Below are positions 2,462 through 63,599 of a stretch of 64,000 nt of DNA, one piece after another. The stretch is from an uncultured Candidatus Saccharibacteria bacterium (GTDB lineage Bacteria; Patescibacteriota; Doudnabacteria; UBA920), in contig CAYYQK010000002.1 of assembly GCA_964473815.1 (NCBI GenBank), positions 105,128 through 169,127 of the forward strand, written 5' to 3'. Both the position numbers and the translations under genes were made by a program. The notes beneath the pieces were generated by a model. The model was not told the origin of the DNA. It made no database searches and worked only from the letters and a program-made list of their open reading frames with translations. The stretch's first letter is position 1. Each line of letters starts with the position of its first letter.

Positions 2462-3133
2462 TTATTTTTTCTTCCATTGCAGAATCATGTAGCCAGGATA
2501 GGTGTCTACGATTTTTTCTGCGGCTGGATCAAACTGCTCCTCAAATAACTCAAGGGTGAAGTGAGTCATCATAAAGGTCGAAAAGTATTCTTTAAGAGTA
2601 TGAGTCGGCTCTTTGAATGTAAGTAACCCATCAAAGCATACTGAATCTACTACTTCCTTTTTGAAGTAGTCTTTCCCTATTTTCTTCTTTTCGTACAGTT
2701 GTCTGATTGGATGCGCTACTAGAAAAGTAAAAGTCCCACCAGGTTTAAGTATCCGATAAACTTCCTTAAAAATTGGTTCTAATTCTTCGGCAGTCTGAAG
2801 CGCATATTTAGAGAATACGAAGTCGAAAGTACTGTCTTGATGAGGCAAAGAATCAAACACTCCGTATTTAAATTTAATACCCGAATATTTTTTTGATGCT
2901 ATATCAAGGAGTTCTTTTGAAGCATCTATACCATAAACAAGATCCGCACCTTGATCTTTGAAGAACTTACAGTCACTACCGTCACCACAACCAATATCTA
3001 ATACAACTCCTCCCTTAATAGTAGGAACTAGATTGCGATAAACTCTACGATTGTACTGCGCACCTTTTTCATAAACAGACTCAAAAGTGTCTGCGATCGA
3101 ATCGTATTGATGACTTAATTGATTTGAATTCAT
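2462..3133 (-). CDS. class I SAM-dependent methyltransferase (UbiE/COQ5-like fold)
   Basis: VLDIGCGDG motif I, acidic residue after beta2 (DAS), RILKPGG motif. Confidence 0.75.
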   Translation of the reverse strand: MNSNQLSHQYDSIADTFESVYEKGAQYNRRVYRNLVPTIKGGVVLDIGCGDGSDCKFFKDQGADLVYGIDASKELLDIASKKYSGIKFKYGVFDSLPHQDSTFDFVFSKYALQTAEELEPIFKEVYRILKPGGTFTFLVAHPIRQLYEKKKIGKDYFKKEVVDSVCFDGLLTFKEPTHTLKEYFSTFMMTHFTLELFEEQFDPAAEKIVDTYPGYMILQWKKK

Positions 3134-3144
3134 ATTGTAGCGAG

Positions 3145-3546
3145 TTAAAAATGTTTCTTAAAATCCAAAGAGGTATTCGCAATTTCATATGCCATATAAT
3201 CCATCTCTTTCCCTTCGTCGCAGATGAATTCATGTTTAACACCCTTTGGCACTATAACTACATCCCCTTGTTCTACGGGAATGTTGCCTTCTTCTGTTTG
3301 AAGAAAAGCCTTTCCTTTAATGATTACGCCGACAACGTGGGATATGTGGTGGTGCATTGGTTCGTTGTCATAACCATTAATGTGTACATAGTTAGCTGAT
3401 ACCTCGGTATTATGAGTGGAATCGAATAGGTCATTGATTCGTACAGGTGGAAGGGAAATAAATGCTGAGTTTCCATCTTTTATAAGTGATGATGAACTAG
3501 GTAAAACAGTACATTTATTTAGTTGTAGTAAATTAGCAATATTCAT
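3145..3546 (-). CDS. cupin-domain protein
   Basis: two-His/Glu cupin motifs HHHISHVVGVI...G...E...PKGVKHEF. Confidence 0.55.
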   Translation of the reverse strand: MNIANLLQLNKCTVLPSSSSLIKDGNSAFISLPPVRINDLFDSTHNTEVSANYVHINGYDNEPMHHHISHVVGVIIKGKAFLQTEEGNIPVEQGDVVIVPKGVKHEFICDEGKEMDYMAYEIANTSLDFKKHF

Positions 3547-3652
3547 AAGTTATAGAATTAATATTCTACGGACGCATCATACTATAAATTCTTGACTTAA
3601 TCATATTTTTGTGGTATTATTACAATATAGTGAACTTAAAGTGCAATAATAT

Positions 3653-4480
3653 ATGTTATTTTCTCCCAACGAATCAATAGAAGATGCCACAATTCGCCTT
3701 GTTTCTATGGGAAAAACGTCCCCTACTGATATCTTCGAAAGTCTTCAAAAAGAAGGCAATTCTATATCAAAAAGAGGGGTGTATAAAGCTATTCATTATT
3801 TGTTAGAGCACACAATTCTTGTAAAGAGTGGTAAAAAACTCTCGATCAGCCAAGAATGGGTAGATTCTGTAACTAGGGCATTAAAGAATAACTTTACTAT
3901 GCCTGTTCTAGCCGACGGAGAATCTGCTACATATAAGTACAAATCCTTAGTAAACCTTGATGCGTATTGGAAGCATCTAACTAAATCTCTCAAAGACCAG
4001 TACAGTACCTACCCTGTATTTTTGTACAGTCCTTATAATATTTGGCTACATTTAGCAGATAGAACTGAAAGTCAATTGGAGTATTATAGATCGTTTGAAA
4101 AGGAGCGAAGATATGGGTACCTCGTACTAGGCAATAGATCAGAATTAGATATGGAGTTTAAAAAAACACTGCAAAGTGAATTTTTGCAGATAGATACGTG
4201 GGACAAGCCTCCTTTCAAGGAAACAGAATACTACACTATAATTGATGACATTATCGTAACTACTAAGGTAGGACCGAAATTAACAAAGATTATAGCTAGT
4301 TTTTATAAAACCACTCCTACAATAGAAAGTAAGTCTAAGTTAAATCGTATTCTAGATATTACAGACATATCTAAGATTAAAATTGAAAGAAATAAAAAGA
4401 AAGCGAAATATCTTCGAAAAAGACTCTCTAAGAATTTCTACATACCAAAAGAGATTAAAGAACAGTTTGGTTTGTTCTAA
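3653..4480 (+). CDS. hypothetical protein
   Basis: 275-aa ORF inside AT-rich island, no recognisable motif. Confidence 0.4.
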   Translation: MLFSPNESIEDATIRLVSMGKTSPTDIFESLQKEGNSISKRGVYKAIHYLLEHTILVKSGKKLSISQEWVDSVTRALKNNFTMPVLADGESATYKYKSLVNLDAYWKHLTKSLKDQYSTYPVFLYSPYNIWLHLADRTESQLEYYRSFEKERRYGYLVLGNRSELDMEFKKTLQSEFLQIDTWDKPPFKETEYYTIIDDIIVTTKVGPKLTKIIASFYKTTPTIESKSKLNRILDITDISKIKIERNKKKAKYLRKRLSKNFYIPKEIKEQFGLF

Positions 4481-9267: not shown

Positions 9268-9672
9268 TTGCCTAACCCCTACTTTGTAGGATATGGCATT
9301 AAATCCGATCAAGATATAGAACCTCTCGTCAGGGTCCTTGATCGGTCGTATCTGGAAACGGATATGTTGATCCGAAAGGGTCAAACTTGGCGGGGGGCTT
9401 TTTGTTCCCCAGTCATACAATTAAAACCGATCAAGGAAATGTCTAAATTGAATACTAAAAAAGTAATAGGTTTCCTATTACGACCTTTGTCATTATTTAT
9501 AGTATTGGTGCTACTGTACTGGGGGTTTACTTCTTCTGGAGATGTTAAGGAAATAGCGTTGAACTTCATTATTATTGCTATGTCCATAATGGTTGTCGGA
9601 ATTATATTTAATGATGTTTGGGATAGTGATGAAGTGCCTAATTGGATTCGTAAGTATTTTAGAAAGAGATAA
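9268..9672 (+). CDS. hypothetical small membrane protein
   Basis: 134-aa ORF with TM helices (LLRPLSLFIVLVLLYWGF; IIIAMSIMVVGIIF). Confidence 0.3.
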   Translation: MPNPYFVGYGIKSDQDIEPLVRVLDRSYLETDMLIRKGQTWRGAFCSPVIQLKPIKEMSKLNTKKVIGFLLRPLSLFIVLVLLYWGFTSSGDVKEIALNFIIIAMSIMVVGIIFNDVWDSDEVPNWIRKYFRKR

Positions 9673-11407: not shown

Positions 11408-13081
11408 ATGAAAGTATCTAATCCAAAACTTAGATATGTGGTTTATGCACGTAAATCCACTGATTCCGAAGATAGACAGGTTCAATCAGTAGACGACCAA
11501 TTAAGAGAGCTAGAACCAATTATTACCCAAAACAGCCTAAATGTAGTTAGGTATTTTGAGGAATCTAAGTCTGCCAAAAGACGTGGAAGACCAATGTTTA
11601 ATGAAATGATGGATATGATTCAAAATGGTAAAGCTGATGGTATTATTTGTTGGAAACCAAATCGGTTATCCCGTAATGCATATGACGGAGGACTGATACA
11701 AGGAATGCTTACTGATAATATTATTCAATCCATAGTTACTCCATCTAAAGAGCATTTGCCCCAAGATAACGTTATGTTATTAACTGTTGAATTAGGCATG
11801 GCTAATCAGTTTAGTTTGGATTTGGGGCGTGATGTTAGCCGTGGAATGCAGAGTAAAGCAAATAAAGGGTGGTTACCTGAGAAAGCACCACTAGGATACC
11901 TTAACGATCCGCTAGGTTTGAAAGGTGAAAAGAAAATATTTATTGATGAGGAAAGATTCCCATTAGTTAGAAAAATGTGGGACTTGATGTTAACAGGAAA
12001 CTATACTGTTAAGCAATTAAGAGATCTTTCCCATAATGAATGGGGTTTGAAGACAAGGGCTAGTAGGAATCTATCTAGCAAGATGCTAAGTCTGAGCGGA
12101 GCGTATAGAATATTCACAAATACATTTTATTATGGCGAGTATTCATATAAAGGAGAGGTAATTCAAGGTAAACATCAACCCATGGTAACTAAGGAAGAAT
12201 TTGATCGAGTCCAAAAGTTACTTGGTAGAGCTGGTAAACCGAGACCTAAATATAAACGATTGCCATTTAATGGTGTGATTAGATGTGGAGAATGTGGATC
12301 CATGATTACTTGTGATGAGAAAGTGAAACGTTCAAAACAACCAAATGTACAGCCAAAGCATTATTTATATCACAGATGTACAGGTAAGAGTCATGATTCT
12401 TGTTTTCAAGAACCAATCACCTATCAGGATCTAGCTAATCAAATTACTGGTTATCTTGGTAGTATTACTATATCTCAAGAACTATTAGAATGGTCATTAA
12501 AAATATTGCGTCAAAATAATCAAATAGAAGACACTAATCGCTCCATAATAATAAAAAACCTAAAAAAAGATTTGGAGTCCGTTTCAGAAAAGAATAAGAA
12601 TTTGATTGATCTCTTTCTTTCAGGAAGTAATAAAGATCGAAGTATGCTCACTGAAGAAGAATATATCAATCAGAAGAATACTTTTACAGCTGAGAAATCT
12701 AGAATTGAAGGTGAATTAAGAAAAATTGAAACTAATGACGGTGGTTTACTTGAGTTAACTGAGAAGACATTTGAGTTTGCTACTTATGCTAGATCTCATT
12801 TCCAAAATGGCGACTATGAAACACAAACTCGTATATTACTGAATCTTGGGCAGAAAATAGTCTTAAAAGATAAAAAGCTAGTTATAGAATTACAGAAACC
12901 TTACTCAATTATAAAAAATGGACTAGAAAAAATGAGTTCAATTATGATATCGGTCGAACAAGAAGAACGCCTTATACCTAAAAGGAAAAACACTCCTTTA
13001 GAGAGTGTTTATTCCATGTGGAGCGGCCAAGGGGAATCGAACCCCTATCCCTTCCTTGGCAAGGAAGAGTTCTACCATTGA
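11408..13081 (+). CDS. large serine recombinase (resolvase/invertase catalytic domain + recombinase domain + zinc ribbon)
   Basis: N-terminal YVVYARKSTDSEDRQ...SVDDQ catalytic-Ser motif; CGECGS...HRCTG zinc ribbon; coiled-coil C-terminus; last ~63 nt overlap tRNA-Gly on opposite strand. Confidence 0.85.
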   Translation: MKVSNPKLRYVVYARKSTDSEDRQVQSVDDQLRELEPIITQNSLNVVRYFEESKSAKRRGRPMFNEMMDMIQNGKADGIICWKPNRLSRNAYDGGLIQGMLTDNIIQSIVTPSKEHLPQDNVMLLTVELGMANQFSLDLGRDVSRGMQSKANKGWLPEKAPLGYLNDPLGLKGEKKIFIDEERFPLVRKMWDLMLTGNYTVKQLRDLSHNEWGLKTRASRNLSSKMLSLSGAYRIFTNTFYYGEYSYKGEVIQGKHQPMVTKEEFDRVQKLLGRAGKPRPKYKRLPFNGVIRCGECGSMITCDEKVKRSKQPNVQPKHYLYHRCTGKSHDSCFQEPITYQDLANQITGYLGSITISQELLEWSLKILRQNNQIEDTNRSIIIKNLKKDLESVSEKNKNLIDLFLSGSNKDRSMLTEEEYINQKNTFTAEKSRIEGELRKIETNDGGLLELTEKTFEFATYARSHFQNGDYETQTRILLNLGQKIVLKDKKLVIELQKPYSIIKNGLEKMSSIMISVEQEERLIPKRKNTPLESVYSMWSGQGESNPYPFLGKEEFYH

Positions 13082-13092
13082 ACCATGGCCGC
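13019..13092 (-). tRNA. tRNA-Gly (GCC)
   Basis: cloverleaf read by eye: acceptor GCGGCCA/TGGCCGC, anticodon loop TTGCCAA, T-loop GGTTCGATTCC, encoded CCA. Confidence 0.85.
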
Positions 13093-13122
13093 ACGCTATT
13101 ATAAATATAAGTAAATTTTTGC

Positions 13123-13197
13123 TGGTGCCGCGAGTCAGAATTGAACTGACGACACGACGCTCTTCAGGCGTCTGCTCTACCACTGAGCTACCGCGGC
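13123..13197 (-). tRNA. tRNA-Phe (GAA)
   Basis: acceptor GCCGCGG, D-arm GCTCAGTGGTAGAGC, anticodon loop CTGAAGA, T-loop TTCAATT, CCA. Confidence 0.85.
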
Positions 13198-13220
13198 ATA
13201 AATGTGGTTTTAATTTTTGT

Positions 13221-13297
13221 TGGTGGGCGATAAAGGATTCGAACCTTTGACATCTTCGGTGTAAACGAAGCGCTCTGACCAGCTGAGCTAATCGCCC
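13221..13297 (-). tRNA. tRNA-Val (TAC)
   Basis: acceptor GGGCGAT/ATCGCCC, anticodon loop TTTACAC, T-loop GGTTCGAATCC, CCA. Confidence 0.85.
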
Positions 13298-13332
13298 TAA
13301 TGTTCGCTTGTGCGAAAACTTTGTAAAATTTT

Positions 13333-13419
13333 TGGTGCCCGAGAGAGGACTTGAACCTCCACGGGATTAATCCCACTACCACCTCAAGGTAGCGCGTCTG
13401 CCAGTTCCGCCACCCGGGC
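13333..13419 (-). tRNA. tRNA-Leu (GAG), long variable arm
   Basis: acceptor GCCCGGG, anticodon loop TTGAGGT, long extra arm, T-loop GGTTCAAGTCC, CCA. Confidence 0.85.
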
Positions 13420-48292: not shown

Positions 48293-48368
48293 GGGCGGTT
48301 AGCTCAGTTGGTAGAGCGTCACATTGACGTTGTGAATGTCAGAGGTTCGAATCCTCTACCGCCCACCA
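48293..48368 (+). tRNA. tRNA-Val (GAC)
   Basis: acceptor GGGCGGT/ACCGCCC, anticodon loop TTGACGT, T-loop GGTTCGAATCC, CCA; TATAAT box 25 nt upstream. Confidence 0.85.
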
Positions 48369-49931: not shown

Positions 49932-51023
49932 GTGAATATGTGCCCAGTAAAATCTTGGGACCGTGATAAGGTCATCGAAGTAATACTTGAAAGGCATGCC
50001 AATGGATTGCCTCTCAATTCAAATTTTCAGCAGTTGCATAATGCTTCGTTATACTGTGCCGCAACTAATTATTGTGGTAGTTGGCGTAAAGCTATTGAGG
50101 ACGCAGGGTTAAAATATGATGATGTAAAGATTAAGAAACGCGCAACTCCAAAGTGGGGCAAAGAGAAAGTCGTAAAAACTATTCTTAATCGAAAAATTGA
50201 AGACTTGCCACTGAACTCAAACTTCGTTCAGTTAAATGAGCAGTTGCTTTATGCAGCGGCTTGCAAGTATTTCAAAGGATGGCGACAAGCAATCGAGGCC
50301 TCTGGTTTGGATTACAACCAGATTCGCAAAGTTTTTTTGAGAACCTGGAGCAAGAAGGCAATCGTTGCTGAAATTAAACGCCGCAAACGCAAAGGATTAT
50401 CAGTAAACGGCGAAACTGTCAGTTCAGAAGACAGGGGTTTGTATAATGCGGCTCGTCGGCACTTTGGCATTGGTGGTTGGAAAAAAGCATTGCTTTTTGC
50501 CGGCATTAATCCGAAGGATATTGATCCAAACCGTAAATGGACCAAGCGCAGAATACTTTCAAGAATTAGAAAGCTCCATAGAGCAGGTTTACCGGTCTAT
50601 GGCTATGCCCTAATCAAATCCGGACAACAGAATCTAGTTGCTGGAGCGGAAAAATATTTTGGAAGCTGGCGTAAAGCCATTGAGGCCGCGGGTTTACAAT
50701 GGAAAAAAGTCCGAGGGGTGAAGAAGTTTTATTGGTGGACCCCTGACCGTGTAAAATCTCAGATTCGATATTGGGCAAATCGTGGCGAGTCTTTAAGCCT
50801 AAATTCGTTTCGCAAAGATCACGGTGATCTCGTCGGTGCTGCGATTTTACATTTCGAATCTTGGAGCCAAGCGGTATATGCTAGTGGTATTGACTATTTA
50901 GCTCACACTAAGGTATGGTCAACTAAAGCTTGGTTAAGGAATTTATCAGATACGGACGTACAAAATCTTGAACAGCACGTTCGCAAGGCATCACATTTGA
51001 GGAGGAAAAATGCCAGAACTTGA
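49932..51023 (+). CDS. tandem-repeat protein (~7 x 45-50 aa repeats with signature ...LY.AA..YFGSWRKAIEAAGL...), probably nucleic-acid-binding
   Basis: internal periodicity visible in protein: GSWRKAIEDAGL / KGWRQAIEASGL / GGWKKALLFAGI / GSWRKAIEAAGL / ESWSQAVYASGI. Confidence 0.5.
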   Translation: MNMCPVKSWDRDKVIEVILERHANGLPLNSNFQQLHNASLYCAATNYCGSWRKAIEDAGLKYDDVKIKKRATPKWGKEKVVKTILNRKIEDLPLNSNFVQLNEQLLYAAACKYFKGWRQAIEASGLDYNQIRKVFLRTWSKKAIVAEIKRRKRKGLSVNGETVSSEDRGLYNAARRHFGIGGWKKALLFAGINPKDIDPNRKWTKRRILSRIRKLHRAGLPVYGYALIKSGQQNLVAGAEKYFGSWRKAIEAAGLQWKKVRGVKKFYWWTPDRVKSQIRYWANRGESLSLNSFRKDHGDLVGAAILHFESWSQAVYASGIDYLAHTKVWSTKAWLRNLSDTDVQNLEQHVRKASHLRRKNART

Positions 51024-51948
51024 AAGGTCAAAATTTGTGTTCGACATTCCCGTGAATAAGATCGATATGCCTTTCGGAATTCGTCATTTTTACGATGACG
51101 AGAGTATGAAGGATATATCAAGATCAATCGCGGGCGGTGGGTTACTACAGCCGATATTGGTAACAAAATCGGACAAGCCAGGCCGATACAATCTTATTGT
51201 CGGCTCGCGGCGGCTTAAAGGGACCATGGCTAATGGTACTACTGAGATTCCTGGGATTTTGAAAGATAATCTTTCATCCAGAGAGATTAAAATCCTCGCA
51301 CTTTCAGAAAATGTTCAGAGAGAGGATCTGACACCTTTCGAAGAAGCCTGGGTTGTCTTTGATCTCGTTAAAAACGAGAAGATGGGTATCGCTGCAGTAG
51401 CCAAATCCTTAGGAAAGCACGAGACGTGGGTCAGAAGAAGAATGAAGTATTTAAGCGTTCCAGATGAGGTTAAAAACCTTGTTTTGGAGGGCAAGCTTTC
51501 ATTCCATAACGTCGAATGTTTGGTCAGCTCTGTGACGGATCCAGCTTTGCAAATCAAATTTGCTACGGAAGCTGTCTTCCATCGTTTCGGTCCGTGTGAA
51601 TTACGTGAGTATATCGCGGATTACGAGGCGGCAGCGGTTAAATCGAAATTGCAAAAGCCTCAAGATGAAGCTAGTGTTCCTGCCCAGCCGGAGAGATTCC
51701 GGCAAACGCTGGGGGACAGTGAGTCGCGAATGCTGCGCATCATAAAAACCATGACCACTAAAAAGTTGGTCATGAAGCTGACTTTGATTAGGAAAACAAT
51801 GAGAGTTGTATTCCGATCATTCAAACAGCGCAAAGCTGAGGATATCTATAATCTAATCGTGGAAATGAAAAAAGTCCGCGCACAACTTGATAAAGATATC
51901 CAAAAAGCTGAGGAGGAATATGGATATCTCTTGCTATCTTTAGAATGA
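51010..51948 (+). CDS. ParB/Spo0J-like protein (ParB N-terminal domain + HTH), orphan (no parA adjacent)
   Basis: GGLLQPILVTK...YNLIVGSRRLKG (ParB box I/II) and HTH MGIAAVAKSLGKHETWVRRRMKYLSVPDEV. Confidence 0.75.
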   Translation: MPELERSKFVFDIPVNKIDMPFGIRHFYDDESMKDISRSIAGGGLLQPILVTKSDKPGRYNLIVGSRRLKGTMANGTTEIPGILKDNLSSREIKILALSENVQREDLTPFEEAWVVFDLVKNEKMGIAAVAKSLGKHETWVRRRMKYLSVPDEVKNLVLEGKLSFHNVECLVSSVTDPALQIKFATEAVFHRFGPCELREYIADYEAAAVKSKLQKPQDEASVPAQPERFRQTLGDSESRMLRIIKTMTTKKLVMKLTLIRKTMRVVFRSFKQRKAEDIYNLIVEMKKVRAQLDKDIQKAEEEYGYLLLSLE

Positions 51949-54828: not shown

Positions 54829-55338
54829 ATGTTAATTATTCGTTTACAACGTGCTGGTAAAAAGAATAAAGCTGATTTCCGGCTTGTTCTTGCGCAAAAG
54901 ACCGCTGCTAGCCAAAAGAAATTCACTGAAGTAATGGGTTCTTACAATCCACATACTAAGAATTTGCAAATCCGTGATCAGGAACGTTTGAACTATTGGG
55001 TTAATGACCAACATGTAGAAGTCTCTCCTACTGCTTACAACCTTCTTGTTGCTAAAGAAATCATCAAAGGTGATAAGAAAAAAGCATTCACAATTCCTAA
55101 AAAGGAAGTAGTGGCTGAAGAGCCAGCTGCCGAAGCTCCAGTTTCAGCAGAGGGTGCAGCAGTAGAAGAGCCGGCAACTGAAGCAGTTCCAGCAGAAGAA
55201 ACTGCTGCATCTGAACCAGCAGCAGAAACACCGGCAGAAGCTGAAGCTCCAACCGTAGAACCTGTGGCTGAAGAGCCAGCAGCTGAGCCAACTCCAGAAT
55301 CAACCGAACCTGCTGAAACAACTGAATCACAAGAATAA
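54829..55338 (+). CDS. rpsP: 30S ribosomal protein S16 with C-terminal Pro/Ala/Glu-rich repeat extension
   Basis: MLIIRLQRAGKKNKADFRLVL N-terminus; C-terminal EPAAE/PAEE repeats. Confidence 0.9.
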   Translation: MLIIRLQRAGKKNKADFRLVLAQKTAASQKKFTEVMGSYNPHTKNLQIRDQERLNYWVNDQHVEVSPTAYNLLVAKEIIKGDKKKAFTIPKKEVVAEEPAAEAPVSAEGAAVEEPATEAVPAEETAASEPAAETPAEAEAPTVEPVAEEPAAEPTPESTEPAETTESQE

Positions 55339-55343
55339 ATTTT

Positions 55344-55368
55344 AAACCCGCCGAGAGCGGGTTTTAAA
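55344..55368 (+). terminator. rho-independent terminator (aacccgc-cgaga-gcgggtt + T-run)
   Basis: 7-bp GC stem then TTTAAAAT after rpsP. Confidence 0.7.
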
Positions 55369-55456
55369 ATGTGAGTTATCAACTGTTCAGTTGCTTTTTT
55401 CTCTTATTCGTGCTATACTTAACCCAAAGTTAGTCACAAAACAAGAAATAAAAAAT

Positions 55457-55951
55457 ATGAACAACAATAAGAAATGGTTGGCAATTGCAATATTAGTTGT
55501 AGTCGCTGCCGCAGCCTGGTTTTTGCTAGTGAAAATCGATAAAAAGAATTCGAGCAAGAATGTTAAGACTGCACCAATTGTAAAGACCACAAAGACAGAT
55601 GTGGACTTTTCGCGTGCCCCAGAAAAATTCCCAGCAGAAATTCCGATCGAAAAGGACGCAAACATTACCCAAAACTATAACGCAACAACAACTAACGGAA
55701 TCTTCCAAGCAACTAGAGTTTTTGAAAGCTCAAAAGCATCAGCAGACAACTTTAGTATTTACAAAGATTTCATGACTAAGAATGGCTGGCAGATCACTTC
55801 AACTATTGATAAGCCAAATCTAAAGTCATTGGTTGGAACAAAGGGCGCAGAAACTCTCTTGGTGAATATTACTGAAAATACTGTTAACCATAAGAAAACA
55901 GTCAGTATTAACTATAGTACTGATACTCGCGTAAAGGCAACAACAAAGTAA
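55457..55951 (+). CDS. small N-terminally anchored secreted protein, paralog A (shares FPAEIPIE motif with 59665..60144)
   Basis: N-terminal TM/signal anchor; central conserved motif; start trimmed to MNNNKKWLAIAILVVV. Confidence 0.45.
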   Translation: MNNNKKWLAIAILVVVAAAAWFLLVKIDKKNSSKNVKTAPIVKTTKTDVDFSRAPEKFPAEIPIEKDANITQNYNATTTNGIFQATRVFESSKASADNFSIYKDFMTKNGWQITSTIDKPNLKSLVGTKGAETLLVNITENTVNHKKTVSINYSTDTRVKATTK

Positions 55952-55969
55952 TATTTGCTTTAAAATATC

Positions 55970-57166
55970 ATGCACAAAAATATCCAAAATGTAGTTGTAA
56001 GAGTTCTTATTGTACTAACTGCATTACTAAGTTTGCCCGCGACACTAGTAACCACGAAAACAGTTCAGGCTAGCACTTGTGTTGGTTTATGTGAGCCGGA
56101 TGTTAACTATGTTAACAATGGTAACAACAATTTTACCGTTAAAGCCAATGAATCGCTCATGTATAACGCATGCAGCTATGATAATAATAATGGCTTGGAT
56201 GAGGCATATGTATCTGAGAATATTTCTTCGAGCTTTGGTATTTACTTCTTCGGAACTCAAGATCCAGGCAATACTCACACAGCTTACGAGCCGGATATTT
56301 CTATGCCTTACGCGCCAGGCCATACCGATGGTTGGACTTATTGCGGTTTCCCAGCCACTCCAACGGTTCCTACGTGGGCTGGTACATCAGAAAGAACCTT
56401 TAATATACCATCTGGTGAGTCTGGGTTCTTTGTGGGGTTTTTCACTCACGTAACTAGGTGGGAACGCCACCAAGGCGAATACGTTCCACAACAGGATGAA
56501 GATCAATTTGTCATAGTCTTGCAGTACACAGGACCAACCCCAAATTTGAGTTGCACCTTCTTACAGGCCACCCAAAGAATTTATCAAGGTGACTCCGTTG
56601 CTTATTCATTTAAAGTTGATACAGATAAACCTGGGTTTAGTTCTCCGGTAGCACTCTCGGCAAGTATCAGACCAGCATCGAGTGGTAACCAGGTTTCCCC
56701 ATCAGTAAGTATTGATCCGTCATACAACAACAAAGTACCCCCAACAACAGGAGTACTGCTAGTGAATGCGCCGGATAATACAACGCCGAATGATAAATAC
56801 GTTATTACAATGACAGCGACTGGAGGAGGTCAAACAAAAACTTGTATCACCAATTTGGATGTCAAAGAATGGAATCCAGATTTTCAATTACGCATAGAAC
56901 CGGATCAAAAAATGGTAAACGCTGGCCAAATAGAAGAGTACGAAGTATTCGCTGACTGCACAGGAAGTTTTGATGGCGATATAACAGGCTTAAAAGTACA
57001 GTCAACCTTTGTAAACCCTATTATAGAGTTGGGCGCAACTACTTTGCATTGCGGAAGAACAACAACAGTGAGTATAGATACATCTTCAATACCTGAGGAT
57101 CAAAGATCTAATTTAGCTACCCCTACATATCAAAACCTGACAGTAACAGGATCCGCTAATTTATAG
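55970..57166 (+). CDS. secreted hypothetical protein (signal peptide)
   Basis: 398-aa ORF with N-terminal signal peptide ending ...KTVQA. Confidence 0.5.
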   Translation: MHKNIQNVVVRVLIVLTALLSLPATLVTTKTVQASTCVGLCEPDVNYVNNGNNNFTVKANESLMYNACSYDNNNGLDEAYVSENISSSFGIYFFGTQDPGNTHTAYEPDISMPYAPGHTDGWTYCGFPATPTVPTWAGTSERTFNIPSGESGFFVGFFTHVTRWERHQGEYVPQQDEDQFVIVLQYTGPTPNLSCTFLQATQRIYQGDSVAYSFKVDTDKPGFSSPVALSASIRPASSGNQVSPSVSIDPSYNNKVPPTTGVLLVNAPDNTTPNDKYVITMTATGGGQTKTCITNLDVKEWNPDFQLRIEPDQKMVNAGQIEEYEVFADCTGSFDGDITGLKVQSTFVNPIIELGATTLHCGRTTTVSIDTSSIPEDQRSNLATPTYQNLTVTGSANL

Positions 57167-57172
57167 ACACTT

Positions 57173-59644
57173 ATGAAAATAAACACAAAAAAACAAATTT
57201 CAATTTTCAAATACGCTGTCAATAGTTTTGTAGCGGCTTCCATTTTATTTGCTCCAATAGTCTCAAATGTCGCTCCTGTAATTAACACTGCGAAAGCAGA
57301 GGTTAGCTGTACTGACGACGCTTTGCCTATCCCAACTGCGGACATGACTGTCCGTAAGGATAATGCACAGGGCGAGGTTTTAGGTACTTACCATGCACGT
57401 GGGGCAATTGATAGCCCTGATGATCCTGGCAATGGCGAAACAGGCGTTGCTACTTTCCAACTTCAAGTCCCAAAAGGTACCAAATTATATTTTACTGCCC
57501 GCACTGACGGATTTAATGGTCCAAACAGAAGTGTTGGCGGCATGCCTAACTATAGTGGCGGTGGAGTGACAGTAACATCTCCAGACGTAAAAGCTGGCTA
57601 TTACCCAAACGGCTTTTCATTTAGTCGTCTCGATGCAGTTACCGGATTAAGTGATCGGGTTATCAACGGTCCGGTGAGTTTAGGCATGGGTGGTGATTGG
57701 AGTTGTTGGGGTGGAGATCGTGACTCACACGTGCAATTAATAGTAAATGTTGTCACTAAACCATCCACTAATTTAGTTACTCGTACAGCTACAACAAATT
57801 TAGCCGTAATTAATGATCCTGCAGTGTCCTCTCATTGCTCTTCTGCGAATGACCCTGGGAATAATTCAACTTGTCGAGTTGATCTTAATGACGGTGCTAC
57901 TATAAGCTGGAATGCCGAATCAACCACTAATGGAAATTCTTGTATCGCTACGAATGATAATACCTCGAGTAACCCAGACTCAAATTGGAATGGAGCAAAG
58001 GATGGAACAAGTGGAACTCAGGCAGTTGGGCCATTTCCTTCATTGGGAACCTTTACATATCAAATTAAATGCACCGGATTAAACGGTGTAACTTCAACTC
58101 CTTCTACAACAACATTTATTGTTGGAAACACCCCTTCGTACACTTGTCAGGTCGTTCCTTCAGGTATACAACAGGTAGACCAGGGTGGTTACGGCGCAGC
58201 TAGTTTGCATGTAACATCTTTGAGTGGTTACAATAAACCAGTAACCTTCTCGCCTGCGATTGTTTCTCCTTCCGGTGCTGGCTCGCCACAGGTGACAATT
58301 GAAGGTAATAATCCTCAGAACTCCCCATATGCTACAAACAGTCCTGTCTCAATTTTCGCCCCTGCAAACTCGGCTGTGGGTACATACACAATCACCTTTA
58401 AAACTGAAGATGGTATTGTATGTGATGGTAATGTAACTTTGCAAATAAACTCTGCAGCAGACCCAGACGGTTACATTTACTGTGGCGCTTCCGGAGCACA
58501 AACAACTTGTAAAATTAATGGCGGCGATAGTATCCCTATTCGCTGGCATGCTGAAAATGTAAATAATGATTGTGTGGTCATTGCAACTGCTAATGATGAT
58601 ACTCAGTTTGATTTTGCCACAGGCAAAGATGGTAATAAGAGTTCGGGGCCACTGAGCAAGCCAACTCAGTTCTCCTTGGGCTGTAGCGCATCAAATGGAC
58701 ACCAGGATCTTGTCCGGACTGCCTTTGTCGATATTACTTCTATTTGTACCGTAAACTGTGGAACCGGCATGTCGTTGACGGCAAGTAATTCTACTTGTGA
58801 ACAAGTTAACTTGAGCTGGTCTTCAACAGTGAATCCAGCACCAAAGAGCTACAAGCTATTTCGTAGTTTAGACGGCAATACTTATGCGGAATTTGCTACT
58901 GTGAACGATCCAACTAACACATACGTCGATAGACCTCCACAACAACTAGGGGTGTCGAATTATTATAAAATTCAAGCTTACAATGACTATAACGGAAATG
59001 GTTCTGTTGTAGCCAATGGCTCTTCCCAGGTAGTGCCCGTTCCTTGTGCTACCCCGAGTTTGGAAGGTTCTGATAAAGATGTAACAAACAGCAAGGGTAA
59101 AATTACAAAAGCGTTTAACCCACCACCTTGTAATGGTGTGTCAGATTTTGCAGTATTGCCAAACAATGCAATCTTCACTGCTGGCGATGAAGTGACCTTT
59201 AAGATTAATATTTGTAATCCTGCTGATCCTAACACTCCACCTCAGCGCGCAGACCTTACAAATATCACCGTTGAAGATACAATGCATAATCTTTCTGCGC
59301 CTACTTCTATAAAGAGCATGAGTTCAAATGGGGGTGGGACCCGTGGAGCTCCTTGTTTGCTGAGCAGTCAAGCACAGGACAATACTGACGGTGACTTTAC
59401 TGGTTTTATTACGTTTACTGTGAAGGATATACCTCGGGCAAACTTAGGGCAGTATTGTTCAATTATAATCACTGCTAAAATTCAAGCACCTCTTAACCCA
59501 ACTGCATCGATTTACCGCTTCTGGAATGAAGCAAAAATTACTGCCACTGGAAATGGTCAAACGATTACAAAGACCGTGAAAACACCTTTGTATCCATTTG
59601 GTTTAACAAATGTACCAAATCGTAACGAAACCTCTCCTCATTAA
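57173..59644 (+). CDS. large secreted Cys-containing repeat protein (Ig-like 4-Cys repeats, FN3-like domain, DUF11-like domain) with conserved C-terminal tail ...VPNRNETSPH
   Basis: signal peptide; repeated C...C..W...C modules; C-terminal 60 aa paralogous to 60146..63073. Confidence 0.6.
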   Translation: MKINTKKQISIFKYAVNSFVAASILFAPIVSNVAPVINTAKAEVSCTDDALPIPTADMTVRKDNAQGEVLGTYHARGAIDSPDDPGNGETGVATFQLQVPKGTKLYFTARTDGFNGPNRSVGGMPNYSGGGVTVTSPDVKAGYYPNGFSFSRLDAVTGLSDRVINGPVSLGMGGDWSCWGGDRDSHVQLIVNVVTKPSTNLVTRTATTNLAVINDPAVSSHCSSANDPGNNSTCRVDLNDGATISWNAESTTNGNSCIATNDNTSSNPDSNWNGAKDGTSGTQAVGPFPSLGTFTYQIKCTGLNGVTSTPSTTTFIVGNTPSYTCQVVPSGIQQVDQGGYGAASLHVTSLSGYNKPVTFSPAIVSPSGAGSPQVTIEGNNPQNSPYATNSPVSIFAPANSAVGTYTITFKTEDGIVCDGNVTLQINSAADPDGYIYCGASGAQTTCKINGGDSIPIRWHAENVNNDCVVIATANDDTQFDFATGKDGNKSSGPLSKPTQFSLGCSASNGHQDLVRTAFVDITSICTVNCGTGMSLTASNSTCEQVNLSWSSTVNPAPKSYKLFRSLDGNTYAEFATVNDPTNTYVDRPPQQLGVSNYYKIQAYNDYNGNGSVVANGSSQVVPVPCATPSLEGSDKDVTNSKGKITKAFNPPPCNGVSDFAVLPNNAIFTAGDEVTFKINICNPADPNTPPQRADLTNITVEDTMHNLSAPTSIKSMSSNGGGTRGAPCLLSSQAQDNTDGDFTGFITFTVKDIPRANLGQYCSIIITAKIQAPLNPTASIYRFWNEAKITATGNGQTITKTVKTPLYPFGLTNVPNRNETSPH

Positions 59645-59664
59645 TAGTTTTTAATTAAAACACA

Positions 59665-60144
59665 ATGAACAAAAGACTCTTAGTTCTTGGTGGTGTACTT
59701 ATCGTACTCATAGTTGCGGTTGGTGCTTATTGGCATTCACCCCACAAAAACGCAAGCATGCCTGACAATGTTATTACAAAGCAAAGTCAAACTACGGGCG
59801 CAAAGAAAGATGTAGATGCAGAGCAGCTGCCAAAAAACTTCCCTGCTGATATTCCAATCGAAGAAGGTGCTTCTGTTGTCCAAAACTTTAATGTTGATGA
59901 TAAAGGTTACCAGCAAGCAACCCGGTCTTTTGAAACACAAGTAAGTCTTGATAAAAACTTAGCGCTGTACAAAAAATATTTAACCGCAAACGGTTATAAA
60001 ATTACTGTTACTATAGACCAGCCGACCTACAAAATGGTCTCTGGTACTAAAGACAAAGATAATTTACGCATTGAAATGACTGATAATTCAGTGTCTAAGC
60101 AAAAGACAGTGAGTATCACATTCATTCAAACGGGATCAAACTAA
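59665..60144 (+). CDS. small N-terminally anchored secreted protein, paralog B
   Basis: MNKRLLVLGGVLIVLIVAVGAYW anchor; FPADIPIEEGASVVQNFN motif matching 55457..55951. Confidence 0.5.
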   Translation: MNKRLLVLGGVLIVLIVAVGAYWHSPHKNASMPDNVITKQSQTTGAKKDVDAEQLPKNFPADIPIEEGASVVQNFNVDDKGYQQATRSFETQVSLDKNLALYKKYLTANGYKITVTIDQPTYKMVSGTKDKDNLRIEMTDNSVSKQKTVSITFIQTGSN

Positions 60145-60145
60145 A

Positions 60146-63073
60146 ATGTTAAATATCAATTACTTATTCAATAGTAAGTTTCTAAAAACAGTCATTTTTA
60201 GTGCGGCTTTTCTATTTGCGTTTATTGCCTTTGCCATGGTTTCTAAGCCACACGCAGCCCATGCGGCAGTGCAGGATTTTACCATTAGTTGTAACAGCTA
60301 CCAACAATCAGGAATAACTGTTATGGCCGGGATCTCTACGGGTATGATAATTAGAATTTCAGGACCAAATAATTCTACATACACCGGTCCGGCAATTACA
60401 GTTACTCCATCGATTTCTCCAACTCCAGCAAGCGGCGCACCTACATACACATATGAAAACAACCCCACTACTGACTCCTGGCTATATACAGTAGTAAAGA
60501 TAAAGACATATAATTCGCCTCAAACAACACCGGGTACTTATGTAATGACCTTTACTGGATCTAACGGAACCTATTCACATTCTTGCAGTTGGAACTTTTA
60601 TGTTACTGCCTATAACGCATCTGTTAGTGGTGCAACTATGAAATGCAATGGCAGTACCAATCCTTGTAATGTAGGTTACAATGACCGTCCAGTGGTTTCA
60701 TGGACAAGTTCGGGAACTACTAATTGTTTTGTCTATGGCCCACCTGATACAAATTATTCAAGCAACCATACAGGGTCATCAGGTAGTTATACCGCGTATA
60801 ATTTTCAAGATGAATCAGAATTTATCGAATTAAATTGCTGGAAGAGTGATTGGTCTGCTAATTTTGGAACTATAGCCTCGAACTCCATTAACACCTTGCC
60901 GTATGCGGATATACACTGTGGGAGCTATCAAACTGCTTGTACCATTAATGCCGGAGATTCAATAAATATTTCTTGGTTTAGCATGCATGCTTTTAGCTGC
61001 ACAGTATCTCCTCCAGGTTGGACCGGTACCGGTACAAATTCATACACCAGATCAAGTGGTCCACTGGTGGCAACCACAACCTTCACCTCAACCTGTACCG
61101 GGTATAACGGTGGAACTTCCTCGGCCAGTGTAACAGTTACAGTCATCCCAGGTCCGTACGGGATCATCACATGTAATGGCTCAGATACTTGCACGATTCC
61201 ATACAATACTGCAGCGACAATTGCGTGGAGCTCTAACCAAGCTACATCATGTTCGATAACACCGTCAGGATGGACTGGTACTTCGGGCTCTAGGTCTACT
61301 GGTAATTTAACCTCGGATCAAACTTACACAATTAATTGTAGTGGTGCTGGTGGTGCGATGACGCCTCATACTGCTACGGTGACAGTTTCTCCTCCGCCTT
61401 TGCCTACCGGTACTATTACTTGTAATGGCGCATCTAGTTGTACAATAGCTTATAATTCTGCGGCTACAATTGCCTGGACTACCTCTGCTGCAACTTCGTG
61501 TACGGTAACTCCTTCGAATTGGAGTGGGACTTCTGGCTCAGTATCTACTGGCAACTTAATTTCAACAACTACTTATACAGCTAATTGTTCAGGCCCGGGT
61601 GGCAATGCTACTATTGGTTCTGTTGTGGTAACGGTTTCACCTCCACCACCGGTAACTGGAAATATTCTGTGTAATGGCGGCGGCAACTGTTCTATTAACT
61701 ACAATACGAGCGCTACTATCTCATGGTCATCTGCAAATGCAACTTCTTGTTCAGTTGCTCCAAACAGTTGGACCGGTCTCAGCGGTTCTCAGTCAACCGG
61801 AAACTTAACATACACAACAGTTTACACTTTAAGTTGTACAGGACCAGCTGGACCACTAAGTCCGCAGCCTTCTGTAACAGTAACAGTGCTTACAGACTTT
61901 ACTTTGAACTGTACGCCAATGACTACAGCTATTGCTTTGGGTGACACAACTTCGTTCCAACTGGCTGTTACCAGACAGGGAATTGGTACTGTCACTTTTG
62001 CAGCTCCTACATTTAGTCCAAATAATGCCAATAATCCGTCTAATTCGTATGTGAATAATCCGAATGCTAGTGGTAGTGGTGTTACCTCTTCAGTAATTTC
62101 TACCACCATGGGTACAACTTTGGCGGCTCCTTATGTAATTACTTTTTCAGCCAGTGCTGCTGGCGCCACCGGCACCGTAACTCATACTTGTACAGTAAAT
62201 CTATACATTTCTGCAACACCTCCAGTTCAGCCAACTAATATTGTTGCTTCCAACCAAGTTTGTGAAACCGTAGATCTTACTTGGGATAAGGGCGCAGGCA
62301 CAACTCCTGCTGGTTACCGTGTTTACCGCCGTACCCAAGGTACTGGCACAGCAACTGATTCCTGGAATCGCGTTGGTTCAGATATCCCTACCACAGGGGC
62401 AACTAGTTATAGCTACCATGACGGAGGTCCATTGTTGGTTCATGGCTCTAACTATTACGCCGTATCTTCTTATGATGTTAATAATTTGGAATCTGCCAAA
62501 GCTAATGCAAGCCCATCATCAATTGTTCCAAGATATTGTGGACCAAGCTTAACAGCTTCTGACATCGATTTGACTCAGGTTGCCGGGCATATAACCAAAT
62601 CATTTACCGGACAGGCATGTAGTGGTACTTCCGAAGTTGCATCATTGCCAGCAAACAGTTTGTTCTCACCAAATGACACCGTTACCTTTACATTGAACAT
62701 TTGTAATTCCGGTACACAAGATATGACAGGTATTGTAGCGCACATCACTGCGGCGAATTTGACCAACTATTCAATGCTGGTGCAACCAAGCCCAGCAGGT
62801 TGCGCGACCATTACAAACCTTTCTTCTACCGCAATGGACTTCACTGTAAATACTTTAACCGCTCCACCACTTGGAGTAATTGCTACTTCTTGTACAATTA
62901 CTTACCGCGCAACTGTAACCTTACCTCCTGGAGTAAGTAACCAGTATCAGCGCTTCCAAAGCGTGGCTGACGTAACAGCTGATGGTGGCTTGAGTGACCA
63001 CATTGTTACTCCAACCTATTTGTTTGGCACGGGACAAAACCAGCCGAACCGTAACGAAACCTCTGCTCATTAA
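60146..63073 (+). CDS. giant secreted Cys-containing repeat protein (at least 5 tandem ~75-aa 4-Cys Ig-like repeats, FN3-like, DUF11-like) with conserved C-terminal tail ...QPNRNETSAH
   Basis: signal peptide/TM at N-terminus; near-identical internal repeats ITCNG..C.I.YN..ATI.W....ATSC...P..W.G..GS.STGNL....YT..C.G; shared C-terminal domain with 57173..59644. Confidence 0.6.
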   Translation: MLNINYLFNSKFLKTVIFSAAFLFAFIAFAMVSKPHAAHAAVQDFTISCNSYQQSGITVMAGISTGMIIRISGPNNSTYTGPAITVTPSISPTPASGAPTYTYENNPTTDSWLYTVVKIKTYNSPQTTPGTYVMTFTGSNGTYSHSCSWNFYVTAYNASVSGATMKCNGSTNPCNVGYNDRPVVSWTSSGTTNCFVYGPPDTNYSSNHTGSSGSYTAYNFQDESEFIELNCWKSDWSANFGTIASNSINTLPYADIHCGSYQTACTINAGDSINISWFSMHAFSCTVSPPGWTGTGTNSYTRSSGPLVATTTFTSTCTGYNGGTSSASVTVTVIPGPYGIITCNGSDTCTIPYNTAATIAWSSNQATSCSITPSGWTGTSGSRSTGNLTSDQTYTINCSGAGGAMTPHTATVTVSPPPLPTGTITCNGASSCTIAYNSAATIAWTTSAATSCTVTPSNWSGTSGSVSTGNLISTTTYTANCSGPGGNATIGSVVVTVSPPPPVTGNILCNGGGNCSINYNTSATISWSSANATSCSVAPNSWTGLSGSQSTGNLTYTTVYTLSCTGPAGPLSPQPSVTVTVLTDFTLNCTPMTTAIALGDTTSFQLAVTRQGIGTVTFAAPTFSPNNANNPSNSYVNNPNASGSGVTSSVISTTMGTTLAAPYVITFSASAAGATGTVTHTCTVNLYISATPPVQPTNIVASNQVCETVDLTWDKGAGTTPAGYRVYRRTQGTGTATDSWNRVGSDIPTTGATSYSYHDGGPLLVHGSNYYAVSSYDVNNLESAKANASPSSIVPRYCGPSLTASDIDLTQVAGHITKSFTGQACSGTSEVASLPANSLFSPNDTVTFTLNICNSGTQDMTGIVAHITAANLTNYSMLVQPSPAGCATITNLSSTAMDFTVNTLTAPPLGVIATSCTITYRATVTLPPGVSNQYQRFQSVADVTADGGLSDHIVTPTYLFGTGQNQPNRNETSAH

Positions 63074-63224
63074 TTTCTACAAAATAGATTTATCTAAAAG
63101 TCACACCTGTAGGGTGTGACTTTTGACATCAGAAAATAAAAATGGTATGATGTTGGGGCAATAGAGGCTTACATGCAAGGTCGAAGCCGCTCTCCTATAG
63201 CAGAAATACTTAACTGAAAGACAC

Positions 63225-63599
63225 ATGGAGAAAGATCAAGAATTTGTTGAATTTATCATCAAGGCGTTAGTAGATAATCCACAAGATGTTCGCACTGATC
63301 GCACTGTTGATGAAATGGGTGTGTTAATCACTCTTCACATCAATCCTGCTGACATGGGCCAAGTAATTGGTCGCATGGGTCAGACTGCAAAAGCAGTTCG
63401 AACATTGTTGCGCGTAGTTGGTGCGAAGCACAAAGCTCGTGTGAACTTGAAGATTGATGAACCAGAAGGTTCTCACCGTGGACCTCGCCGCGATCGTTCT
63501 GAACAACGCGATGATATGGGTGCATCTGATGCCGGCGACGCTGGCAACAACGATGCCGAAATGGCCGGTGCTCCGGACATGGACGACTTCAAGCTTTAA
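63225..63599 (+). CDS. KH-domain RNA-binding protein (KhpA/YlqC-like) with disordered acidic/basic C-terminal extension
   Basis: KH motif MGQVIGRMGQTAKAVRTLL; normally encoded next to rpsP. Confidence 0.75.
   Translation: MEKDQEFVEFIIKALVDNPQDVRTDRTVDEMGVLITLHINPADMGQVIGRMGQTAKAVRTLLRVVGAKHKARVNLKIDEPEGSHRGPRRDRSEQRDDMGASDAGDAGNNDAEMAGAPDMDDFKL

Follow-up and report, generated by a model that had tools for sequence, protein, structure and literature searches.

In the WxL/Csc clusters of Lactobacillales, small membrane- or wall-anchored proteins and larger secreted proteins are encoded in paralogous cassettes; the secreted proteins, which lack a covalent anchor, are retained through a conserved C-terminal module. 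The bacterial members of the Mog1/PsbP-like group are mostly tethered to the envelope and bind other proteins. The Saccharibacteria and other Patescibacteria that have been cultivated live attached to host bacteria, and the contact molecules are largely unknown. Exceptions, from oral strains, are type IV pili and a small number of essential proteins resembling adhesins, and transposon sequencing (Tn-seq) in Southlakia, which is without the island described here, found several envelope proteins of adhesin-like type to be essential (PMC10633639). This island consists of five genes located between rpsP and the gene of a KH-domain protein (KH gene) in a stretch of 64,000 nucleotides (hereafter the window) from an uncultured Candidatus Saccharibacteria bacterium (contig CAYYQK010000002.1). 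With a probability of roughly 0.55, we read it as a clade-specific, diversifying surface-adhesin operon, in which a C-terminal module and a short terminal tail would retain the large proteins at the surface and the small proteins would be their membrane-side partners.

The island spans positions 55457-63073 and forms two cassettes, sA-p398-p823 and sB-p975, all on the + strand; the distance from rpsP to the KH gene is 7,886 bp. A preliminary description of this DNA had reported five genes separating these two, and all seven open reading frames (ORFs) were found again in the ORF list with the same limits. The elements of the locus are as follows.

54829-55338, + strand: rpsP, ribosomal protein S16 (PF00886, E 9e-10; TIGR00002, E 5e-11), the upstream border
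55344-55369, + strand: hairpin AAACCCGC-CGAGA-GCGGGTTT followed by a T/A run, terminator-like by its sequence, between rpsP and the island
55391-55419, + strand: weak promoter-like site TTGCTT-17-TGcTATACT, putatively serving the island, chosen by inspection only and below the threshold of the promoter scan
55457-55951, + strand: sA, 164 amino acids, with a membrane helix at its N-terminus and an ectodomain of Mog1/PsbP-like type; paralog of sB
55970-57166, + strand: p398, exported protein of 398 amino acids, made up of a signal peptide, an N-terminal region that contains Cys, and two D modules rich in beta structure
57173-59644, + strand: p823, exported stalk protein, its parts assigned by sequence alignments and by repeat and C-terminal-domain profiles
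59665-60144, + strand: sB, 159 amino acids, with an N-terminal helix, a linker and a Mog1/PsbP/DcrB-like domain
60146-63073, + strand: p975, exported stalk protein, its parts assigned by alignments, profiles, an AlphaFold2 (AF2) model and Foldseek
63096-63124, + strand: hairpin AAAAGTCACACC-TGTA-GGGTGTGACTTTT, terminator-like by its sequence, closing the island
63123-63151, + strand: promoter-like site TTGACA-17-TATGAT with TG, 11/12, the top match of the region and a consensus match only
63225-63599, + strand: KH gene, encoding a KhpA/B-type KH-domain protein (PF13083, E 2e-21), the downstream border

Gaps between the island genes measure 1-20 nucleotides (1 nucleotide from the sB stop codon to the p975 start), and the outer gaps 118 and 151 nucleotides. 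The terminator that the preliminary description had assigned to rpsP is present as the first hairpin with its T-run, although the automated scan reports this hairpin on the - strand. The promoter-like site at 63123-63151 comes right after the second hairpin, just upstream of the KH gene, and would restart transcription of that gene behind the island. Given the flanking hairpins and the two promoter-like sites, which as consensus matches are not proof, the island is probably a transcription unit of its own.

All five island proteins showed a single N-terminal hydrophobic segment (mean Kyte-Doolittle value of 2.0-3.3 over 15 amino acids) and no later one, and the same scan detected none in S16 or KH. 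In the three large proteins this segment is followed by an A-x-A-type site (VQA/S, AKA/E and AHA/A; heuristic, by inspection), in agreement with the secreted proteins of 398, 823 and 975 amino acids previously reported, although the label "giant" was overstated for proteins of this size. Scans of the five proteins against Pfam-A and NCBIfam at E <= 0.1 gave nothing above chance. The large proteins contain 8-30 Cys each, and p823 and p975 are built of the following parts.

57299-57805, + strand: N-terminal region of p823, with no recognised fold
57806-58108 and 58454-58732, + strand: 4-Cys repeats of p823
58121-58456, + strand: D module of p823
58760-59047, + strand: FN3-like domain of p823 (alignment)
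59048-59596, + strand: CLIPPER-like domain of p823, with the K/D/N triad
59597-59641, + strand: tail of p823
59615-59641, + strand: tail motif PNRNETSPH of p823, right before the stop codon
60266-60616 and 61892-62221, + strand: D modules of p975
60617-61891, + strand: five 4-Cys repeats of p975
62222-62530, + strand: FN3-like domain of p975 (AF2 model, Foldseek)
62531-63025, + strand: CLIPPER-like domain of p975, K/D/N triad lost
63026-63070, + strand: tail of p975
63044-63070, + strand: tail motif PNRNETSAH of p975, right before the stop codon

The 4-Cys repeat has about 85 amino acids with four invariant Cys and one Trp, and its copies, five in p975 and two in p823, matched the repeat profile with domain E values of 1e-24 to 1e-32. 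The large proteins had been described as rich in such repeats, for which an Ig-like fold is putative; the repeats are present in p975 and p823 but not in p398, which has none and also lacks the CLIPPER-like domain and the tail. The D module, of about 110 amino acids and bracketed by two Cys in most copies, occurs in all three. No Pfam model was found for the 4-Cys repeat and no PDB sequence was matched by its profile, and neither the repeat nor the D module was related to the CLIPPER-like domain in profile-profile comparison. The repeat is widespread in Patescibacteria and beyond: p975, of which identical copies exist in public assemblies, gave 197 matches as a query, and these were attributed to the repeat because most of those listed cover only about one third of the query. 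Several of the repeat-bearing matches carry DUF11, fn3, PKD or other surface-protein domains.

The C-terminal region of about 320 residues is common to p823 and p975 (33% identity, E 4e-33). The AF2 model of p975 residues 676-975, with a predicted local distance difference test (pLDDT) value of 82.2, contained an FN3-like sandwich, whose strands fall within residues 22-101 of the segment, and then a larger sandwich. Foldseek matched this model to the collagen-binding domains of Cnm (E 5e-7) and RspB, to SdrD, ClfA and UafA, to the pilins SpaD, BcpA and PilB, and to a CLIPPER (DUF11) domain (9IFR, E 3e-4, TMt 0.56), and it also returned the FN3 tandems of sDscam, Ihog and integrin beta4 (E 4e-5 to 2e-4). 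The FN3-like modules of the preliminary description were therefore recovered, in p975 by the model and Foldseek and in p823 by alignment. PF00041 (fn3) and PF01345 (CLIPPER/DUF11) did not match p823 or p975 at E <= 0.1. The family profile A3 found proteins annotated with PF00041 (E 4.5e-12 to 7e-4), and precomputed PF01345 matches exist for P0003, a tail-bearing homolog, and for the 849-amino acid product of the last island gene of locus L033 (loci outside the window are numbered L001 onwards), an ortholog that also has a faint fn3 match. Searches of PDB sequences with the C-terminal-domain profile, with p823 and with p398 gave nothing significant. Word-indexed homolog searches returned at least 10 proteins with the small-protein profile and at least 5 with the C-terminal-module profile, and an exhaustive search was then used; with the C-terminal-domain profile it found very long proteins with 8 to 52 matched stretches each, which are probably arrays of DUF11.

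The CLIPPER domain, which is CnaA-like and occurs in fibrillar adhesins, often contains an intramolecular Lys-Asn isopeptide bond (PMC12617251). The pattern at three aligned positions fits such a bond: they were occupied by Lys, Asp/Glu and Asn in 40 of 46 distinct C-terminal domains; the four domains with Ile/Leu in place of Lys all had Ser/Thr in place of Asn, and the remaining two had Gln, Leu and Asn. The residues in these columns are K/D/N in p823 and I/I/S in p975, and the CLIPPER-like domain of p823 is thus predicted to be isopeptide-stabilised.

The preliminary description had read the locus as a surface or adhesin island. This reading is supported by the export signals and by the fold matches to MSCRAMM domains, pilins and CLIPPER, and from these, together with the tail and its linkage to the small proteins described below, we infer surface retention, docking of the tail onto a receptor and adhesion. 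Signal peptides in proteins with no recognised anchor, whose unique N-terminal regions could be enzymatic or ligand-binding, would also fit products that are released as soluble binding or scavenging factors or as factors acting on the host envelope, with the C-terminal module serving folding or oligomerisation. We consider this improbable, given that a repeat stalk followed by FN3 and CnaA/CLIPPER-like domains is the architecture of cell-attached fibrillar adhesins and pilins (PMC12617251), that the proteins are tightly coupled to membrane-anchored partners, and that Pfam and NCBIfam scans revealed no catalytic domain.

The large tail-bearing proteins end with TPPYLF, a Gly-rich stretch of 5-6 residues, the motif P-x-R-x-E-(T/S)-x-P and 0-2 further residues. 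The Pro, Arg and Glu of the motif are invariant in 20 aligned sequences that average 38% identity, and the exhaustive search added at least 33 more 50%-identity clusters, in each of which the single copy has the tail, or a near variant of it, at its end. The tails of p823 and p975 terminate in S-(P/A)-H, and those of most other genomes in A-P-(Q/N). Codons in the tail vary (CGT, AGA, CGC and CGA for Arg, GAA and GAG for Glu, and those for Pro as well), which indicates that the constraint acts on the protein; this variation of synonymous codons ruled out a cause at the level of DNA or RNA. The last eight residues of p975 had pLDDT values below 50 in the AF2 monomer model, so the tail is probably a free peptide outside the fold. 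From the first codon of the motif to one base past the stop codon (59615-59645 and 63044-63074), p823 and p975 are identical at 28 of 31 nucleotides despite about 33% identity of the domain, which suggests either gene conversion or a shared partner; together with the S-(P/A)-H ending of both tails, it suggests concerted evolution within the genome. On the short contig L036, a 338-amino acid ORF (3027-4040, + strand) downstream of a divergent tail-bearing gene likewise ends in ...LRNEK, similar to the shortened tail of its neighbour, VPTRNEK.

No LPXTG motif, second membrane helix or match to an NCBIfam sorting domain was found in p823 or p975. Both proteins end 4 residues after the invariant Glu, and in nearly all tail sequences 1-5 residues follow it, without a helix. 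Hence, with no hydrophobic helix and no sorting-domain match in NCBIfam, the tail is not an LPXTG, PEP-CTERM or similar tripartite signal, and the C-terminal module together with the tail is proposed as the anchor. Literature searches on a sorting signal of Patescibacteria, on this locus and on an S-layer (surface-layer) protein of Saccharibacteria returned nothing relevant; a 2026 preprint on Actinobacteria defence was set aside, as it is about host proteins and not about the island proteins.

A tail that is short, invariant and exposed, and that follows a Gly-rich linker, has the form in which enzymes usually recognise a substrate. It might therefore be processed or anchored by an unlinked enzyme (a transpeptidase, a sortase-like enzyme or a protease), which would trim the proteins or link them covalently to the wall, with the small proteins working as extracytoplasmic chaperones or assembly factors. 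In known sorting signals, however, the motif is followed by a hydrophobic helix and by a basic end, whereas only the few residues mentioned above are present here; these residues vary, which argues against a chemistry at the terminal residue, and no candidate enzyme gene was detected in or beside the island at 20 loci. This is the main rival of the surface-adhesin reading and we hold it to be rather unlikely; release of the proteins, an S-layer and recent transfer are less likely still.

Over 157 amino acids, sA and sB show 39% identity (E 2e-32), and the two have in common the core FPA(E/D)IPIE...QN(Y/F)N; together with the N-terminal hydrophobic segment (residues 10-24 in sA), this bears out their earlier description as two paralogous small N-anchored proteins with a common core. 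The fold of these proteins, like the conserved tail of the large ones, had been overlooked at that time. In sB, a membrane helix (residues 4-22) and a disordered linker precede a Mog1/PsbP/DcrB-like domain (residues 46-155). Modelled by AF2 from 11 sequences, sB had a mean pLDDT of 80.5, above 90 in the core, and showed a beta-beta-alpha-beta4 domain with fold matches to DcrB (9.6), to the Eag chaperone SciW (9.0) and to Mog1, MTC28, LppA, LpqN, PsbP and TiME (6.5-7.7). According to this model, the domain has a Mog1/PsbP-like fold, with an antiparallel sheet packed on a helix in that order. Precomputed matches to Pfam PF27226 (AF_1845) have been recorded for both small proteins and for several homologs; literature searches found no paper on AF_1845. 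A Pfam scan of 23 small-protein homologs gave chance-level matches only, and the search of PDB sequences with sB gave nothing significant (best E 0.31). We know of no case in which a Mog1/PsbP-like fold is paired with adhesin-like proteins, and none was found in literature searches.

The 13 closest relatives contain 34 more copies of the small proteins, with an invariant Pro and an invariant Asn within the FPxxxPxE...QN core. Two sequence types were distinguished. Genes of the GFPxxLPVE.GS.VLQNYE...QSTR type are always immediately upstream of a large tail-bearing gene, and those of the KFPxxIPIE...QNYNAT...QATR type, to which sA and sB belong, precede p398-like genes, genes of an exported family of 465-559 amino acids, or large tail-bearing genes. 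In the window, and in 19 further clusters whose flanking DNA is long enough, the tail-bearing gene comes with a small-protein gene. The linked loci include L001-L013, L027, L028, L029, L031 and L033 and, in other genomic contexts, L032 and L035; many of the paired genes are 1-20 nucleotides apart or overlap. At L032 the cassette is flanked by hisS and comEC and the small-protein gene (E 1e-45) is 1.5 kb upstream, and at L035 the small-protein gene is just downstream of the tail-bearing gene. This shows that the pairing of tail and small protein survives relocation to other genomic sites. Within the window, both families are confined to the island.

Several observations weigh against the surface-adhesin reading or part of it. 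The N-terminal regions of p398 and p823 gave no Pfam, NCBIfam or PDB sequence match and contain no recognisable binding fold. On contig L036, a tail-bearing gene is present and no small-protein gene was detected, the upstream region being beyond the contig end. Small-protein genes outnumber tail-bearing genes and also precede genes of tail-less proteins (the p398-like ones and those of 465-559 amino acids), so the role of the small proteins is not limited to binding the tail. Moreover, the Mog1/PsbP-like group includes chaperones (the Eag proteins SciW and PA0094) and the envelope-biogenesis factors DcrB and LpqN, lipoproteins, and a role in assembly fits as well. These last two points also favour the proposal of a tail-recognising enzyme with chaperones.

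Synteny was analysed by tblastn and ORF inspection, with 10-kb flanks, in the 13 closest species-level genomes (L001-L013, with SMC 66-85% identical). In all 13, a run of genes comes after SMC and S16 that includes relatives of sA/sB and of p975, p823 or p398, and homologs of p398 were present in the islands of L001, L002, L004, L011 and L013. The KH gene closes the island in all seven of these genomes in which the fetched DNA extends that far. Tail-bearing genes were also located directly upstream of KH on the long contigs L027, L028, L029, L031 and L033 and on the short contig L034; a scan of metagenome contigs yielded 3 loci only. The island follows rpsP in all loci but L027 (GCA_041389225.1, labelled Candidatus Doudnabacteria), where rpsP is upstream of RNase III and SMC and the island lies between SMC/GIY-YIG and KH, indicating that in this genome it keeps with KH rather than with rpsP. 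The gene order of L027 is otherwise like that of the Saccharibacteria loci, so that this label is perhaps questionable.

The KH gene comes 54-362 bp after S16 in two Paceibacterota genomes and one further genome (L015, L016 and L018), and likewise in one Christensenella and one Acidobacteriaceae genome; the adjacency holds in L015-L018, in L023 and in Southlakia. In the cultivated oral strain Southlakia epibionticum ML1, S16 (SEML1_0591), KH (SEML1_0590) and TrmD (SEML1_0589) are encoded consecutively (Table S1, PMC10633639). This indicates that the adjacency is conserved in the phylum and that the island is lineage-restricted, as the preliminary description had proposed for a block interrupting the conserved rpsP-khpA pair. 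The presence of the same families in 13 of 13 nearest genomes and on six further contigs indicates that the island is ancestral to the clade and not peculiar to one genome. However, it varies widely in both content and size. Judged by these sequence comparisons, the island is clade-specific within Saccharibacteria, ancestral to the clade and variable in content.

The variation concerns size, gene number, gene order and families. The span from S16 to KH is 5.5-9 kb in seven relatives and more than 10 kb in six, and reaches 13.7 kb in L028, so that island size overall ranges from 5.5 to more than 13.7 kb. Identity to the relatives is 25-47% for the island proteins, compared with 66-85% for SMC and 73-87% for KH. 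One extra family of about 470-508 amino acids, ending in ...ITLP/VNLP, was found in L004, L011 and L013. The exported family of 465-559 amino acids has few Cys and is absent from the window; its members in the islands of relatives are the following.

L003, 11233-12894: after a small-protein gene
L005, 10768-12447: directly after rpsP
L007, 11257-12711: after a small-protein gene
L008, 11205-12707: after a small-protein gene
L009, 10664-12061: directly after rpsP
L010, 8919-10316: directly after rpsP
L012, 11421-13010: after a small-protein gene
L033, 8356-9930: after a small-protein gene

The interruption of an otherwise conserved gene string is what a recently acquired, mobile or horizontally transferred island would produce. 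This explanation is already contradicted and we give it almost no weight: tail-bearing genes adjoin KH on its upstream side in 13/13 loci beyond the window whose fetched DNA includes KH, the same families follow rpsP in six more, and the G+C content of the island (0.39-0.47) is like that of the flanks (0.41-0.43). In addition, no integrase- or transposase-like gene was found among the island ORFs or the called genes annotated with Pfam, no tRNA gene lies in or beside the island (the nearest is at 48293-48368), and the pairwise repeat search of the island detected no flanking or long direct repeats, only the 31-nucleotide tail-coding match and weak matches between repeat units. Variation by a diversity-generating retroelement or by repeats was rejected as well, with no long direct repeats, no template/variable repeat pair and no notable tandem DNA repeats.

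A further explanation is that the island encodes components of an S-layer or sheath, placed beside ribosomal genes for high expression, instead of specific adhesins. The position beside rpsP and the several paralogous, exported, beta-rich proteins with membrane-anchored partners would fit it, and CLIPPER domains occur in archaeal S-layer-associated porins (PMC12617251). On the other hand, a hairpin stands between rpsP and the island, and no domain of lattice-forming or SLH type was revealed by Pfam and NCBIfam scans. As a rule, classical S-layer proteins have almost no Cys and are conserved within a lineage, whereas the number and architecture of the Cys-containing island proteins vary among close relatives, and we find such a function hard to credit.

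Under the surface-adhesin reading, each small protein would be held in the membrane by its N-terminal helix and display its Mog1/PsbP/DcrB-like domain outside, and the large, Cys-rich modular proteins would be exported via Sec. p823 and p975 would be fibrillar adhesins composed of a variable N-terminus, a beta-rich stalk, FN3, the CnaA/CLIPPER-like domain, a Gly-rich linker and the tail; the tail and the C-terminal module would dock, most likely, onto the co-encoded small membrane-anchored protein, and the variable N-termini would point outward and bind the host bacterium or a substrate. The locus would have been at this site since the ancestor of the clade, diversifying in place by duplication, loss and domain shuffling, which is what would be expected of proteins with which an epibiont contacts its host. 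Going further, the tail and the Mog1/PsbP-like protein may constitute an undescribed sortase-independent retention system in which each cassette brings its own receptor and cargo and the hypervariable cassettes set the host range; we advance this proposal tentatively.

If it is true, the pairing of tail and small protein would be a means of protein retention on a Gram-positive-like envelope without sortase. If the island is only one more adhesin locus of variable content, anchored non-covalently in an ordinary way, the analysis still annotates five proteins that were nameless in the public sources consulted. Adhesin loci of this variable kind are common, and the folds are not new; the position of the island, the anchorless tail and the pairing with a Mog1/PsbP-like protein appear undescribed in the curated libraries and literature searched. 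The locus provides candidate contact proteins across the clade at an easily located site, directly upstream of khpA, and because its content changes between close relatives it could be used as a marker and test bed of host-range evolution in environmental Saccharibacteria.

Both border proteins carry extensions. The C-terminal extension of S16 (55090-55338, residues ~88-169) has about 80-90 amino acids and is acidic, rich in Pro, Ala, Glu and Thr and of low complexity; those of the relatives, whose S16 ORFs have 152-181 amino acids, are alike in composition and differ in sequence and length. With S16 as a query, 13 genomes labelled Saccharibacteria or Patescibacteria were retrieved (54-78% identity). 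The KH protein has an acidic C-terminal extension of about 45 amino acids (63465-63599, residues ~81-124), which ends in seven residues, DMDDFKL, that do not differ in any relative examined (including L003, L005, L007-L010 and L012), while the rest of the extension varies. DMDDFKL may thus be a conserved short linear motif on the KhpA of this clade.

Other features were observed in the window. The cumulative GC skew reaches its maximum at about 53.5-54.5 kb and then drops steadily across the island, with all genes remaining on the + strand; the drop may reflect no more than the Thr/Ser/Asn-rich coding of the island or, possibly, a replication-related switch near parB-smc. The remaining features are listed below.

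9269-9383, + strand: LOOT RNA (Rfam RF03000), 76.1 bits against a gathering score of 46.4, overlapping the start of an ORF with a TTG start (9268-9672)
13019-13419, - strand: four tRNA genes (Gly-GCC, Phe-GAA, Val-TAC and Leu-GAG) within 400 bp; five others are scattered in the window
49932-51023, + strand: protein of 363 amino acids with about five repeats of about 70 amino acids and a motif like YFGSWRKAIEAAGL, faintly matching HNH_repeat in the public record; its gene is directly upstream of SMC and of a ParB-like gene (51010-51948), which it overlaps

Compared with the rpsP-khpA-(rimM)-trmD-rplS string, the genes of S16, KH, TrmD and L19 are in the usual order here too. The string is, however, split by an operon of 7.9 kb, with a strong promoter-like site of its own for KH, and genes are interspersed downstream, the order behind KH on a public contig of 205 kb with an identical p975 (L025) being NUDIX, trmD, pseudouridine synthase and rplS, with no rimM called. 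The likeness to the WxL/Csc clusters is an analogy of organisation only, as the folds and the phylum are unrelated; no WxL motif is present, and Trp is absent from the C-terminal 185 residues of p975. sA and sB differ from DcrB, DUF1795 (Eag), LpqN, MTC28 and PsbP in that their tether is an N-terminal helix and not a lipid (neither protein contains Cys) and in that they are encoded in cassettes with adhesin-like proteins, and they have no sequence similarity to any of these. The MSCRAMM and fibrillar adhesins (Cnm, SdrD, ClfA) have, like p823 and p975, a signal peptide, a variable N-terminus and a stalk of tandem beta-sandwiches including FN3, and a CnaA/CLIPPER-like domain, in p823 with the Lys/Asp/Asn signature, and with fold matches at E 5e-7 to 3e-4. 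The island proteins depart from them as follows: they stay below the Pfam thresholds for CLIPPER and fn3, a free P-x-R-x-E-(T/S)-x-P tail takes the place of an LPXTG motif, C-terminal helix or known sorting domain, and the CLIPPER-like domain is a single C-terminal copy and not repeated along the stalk.

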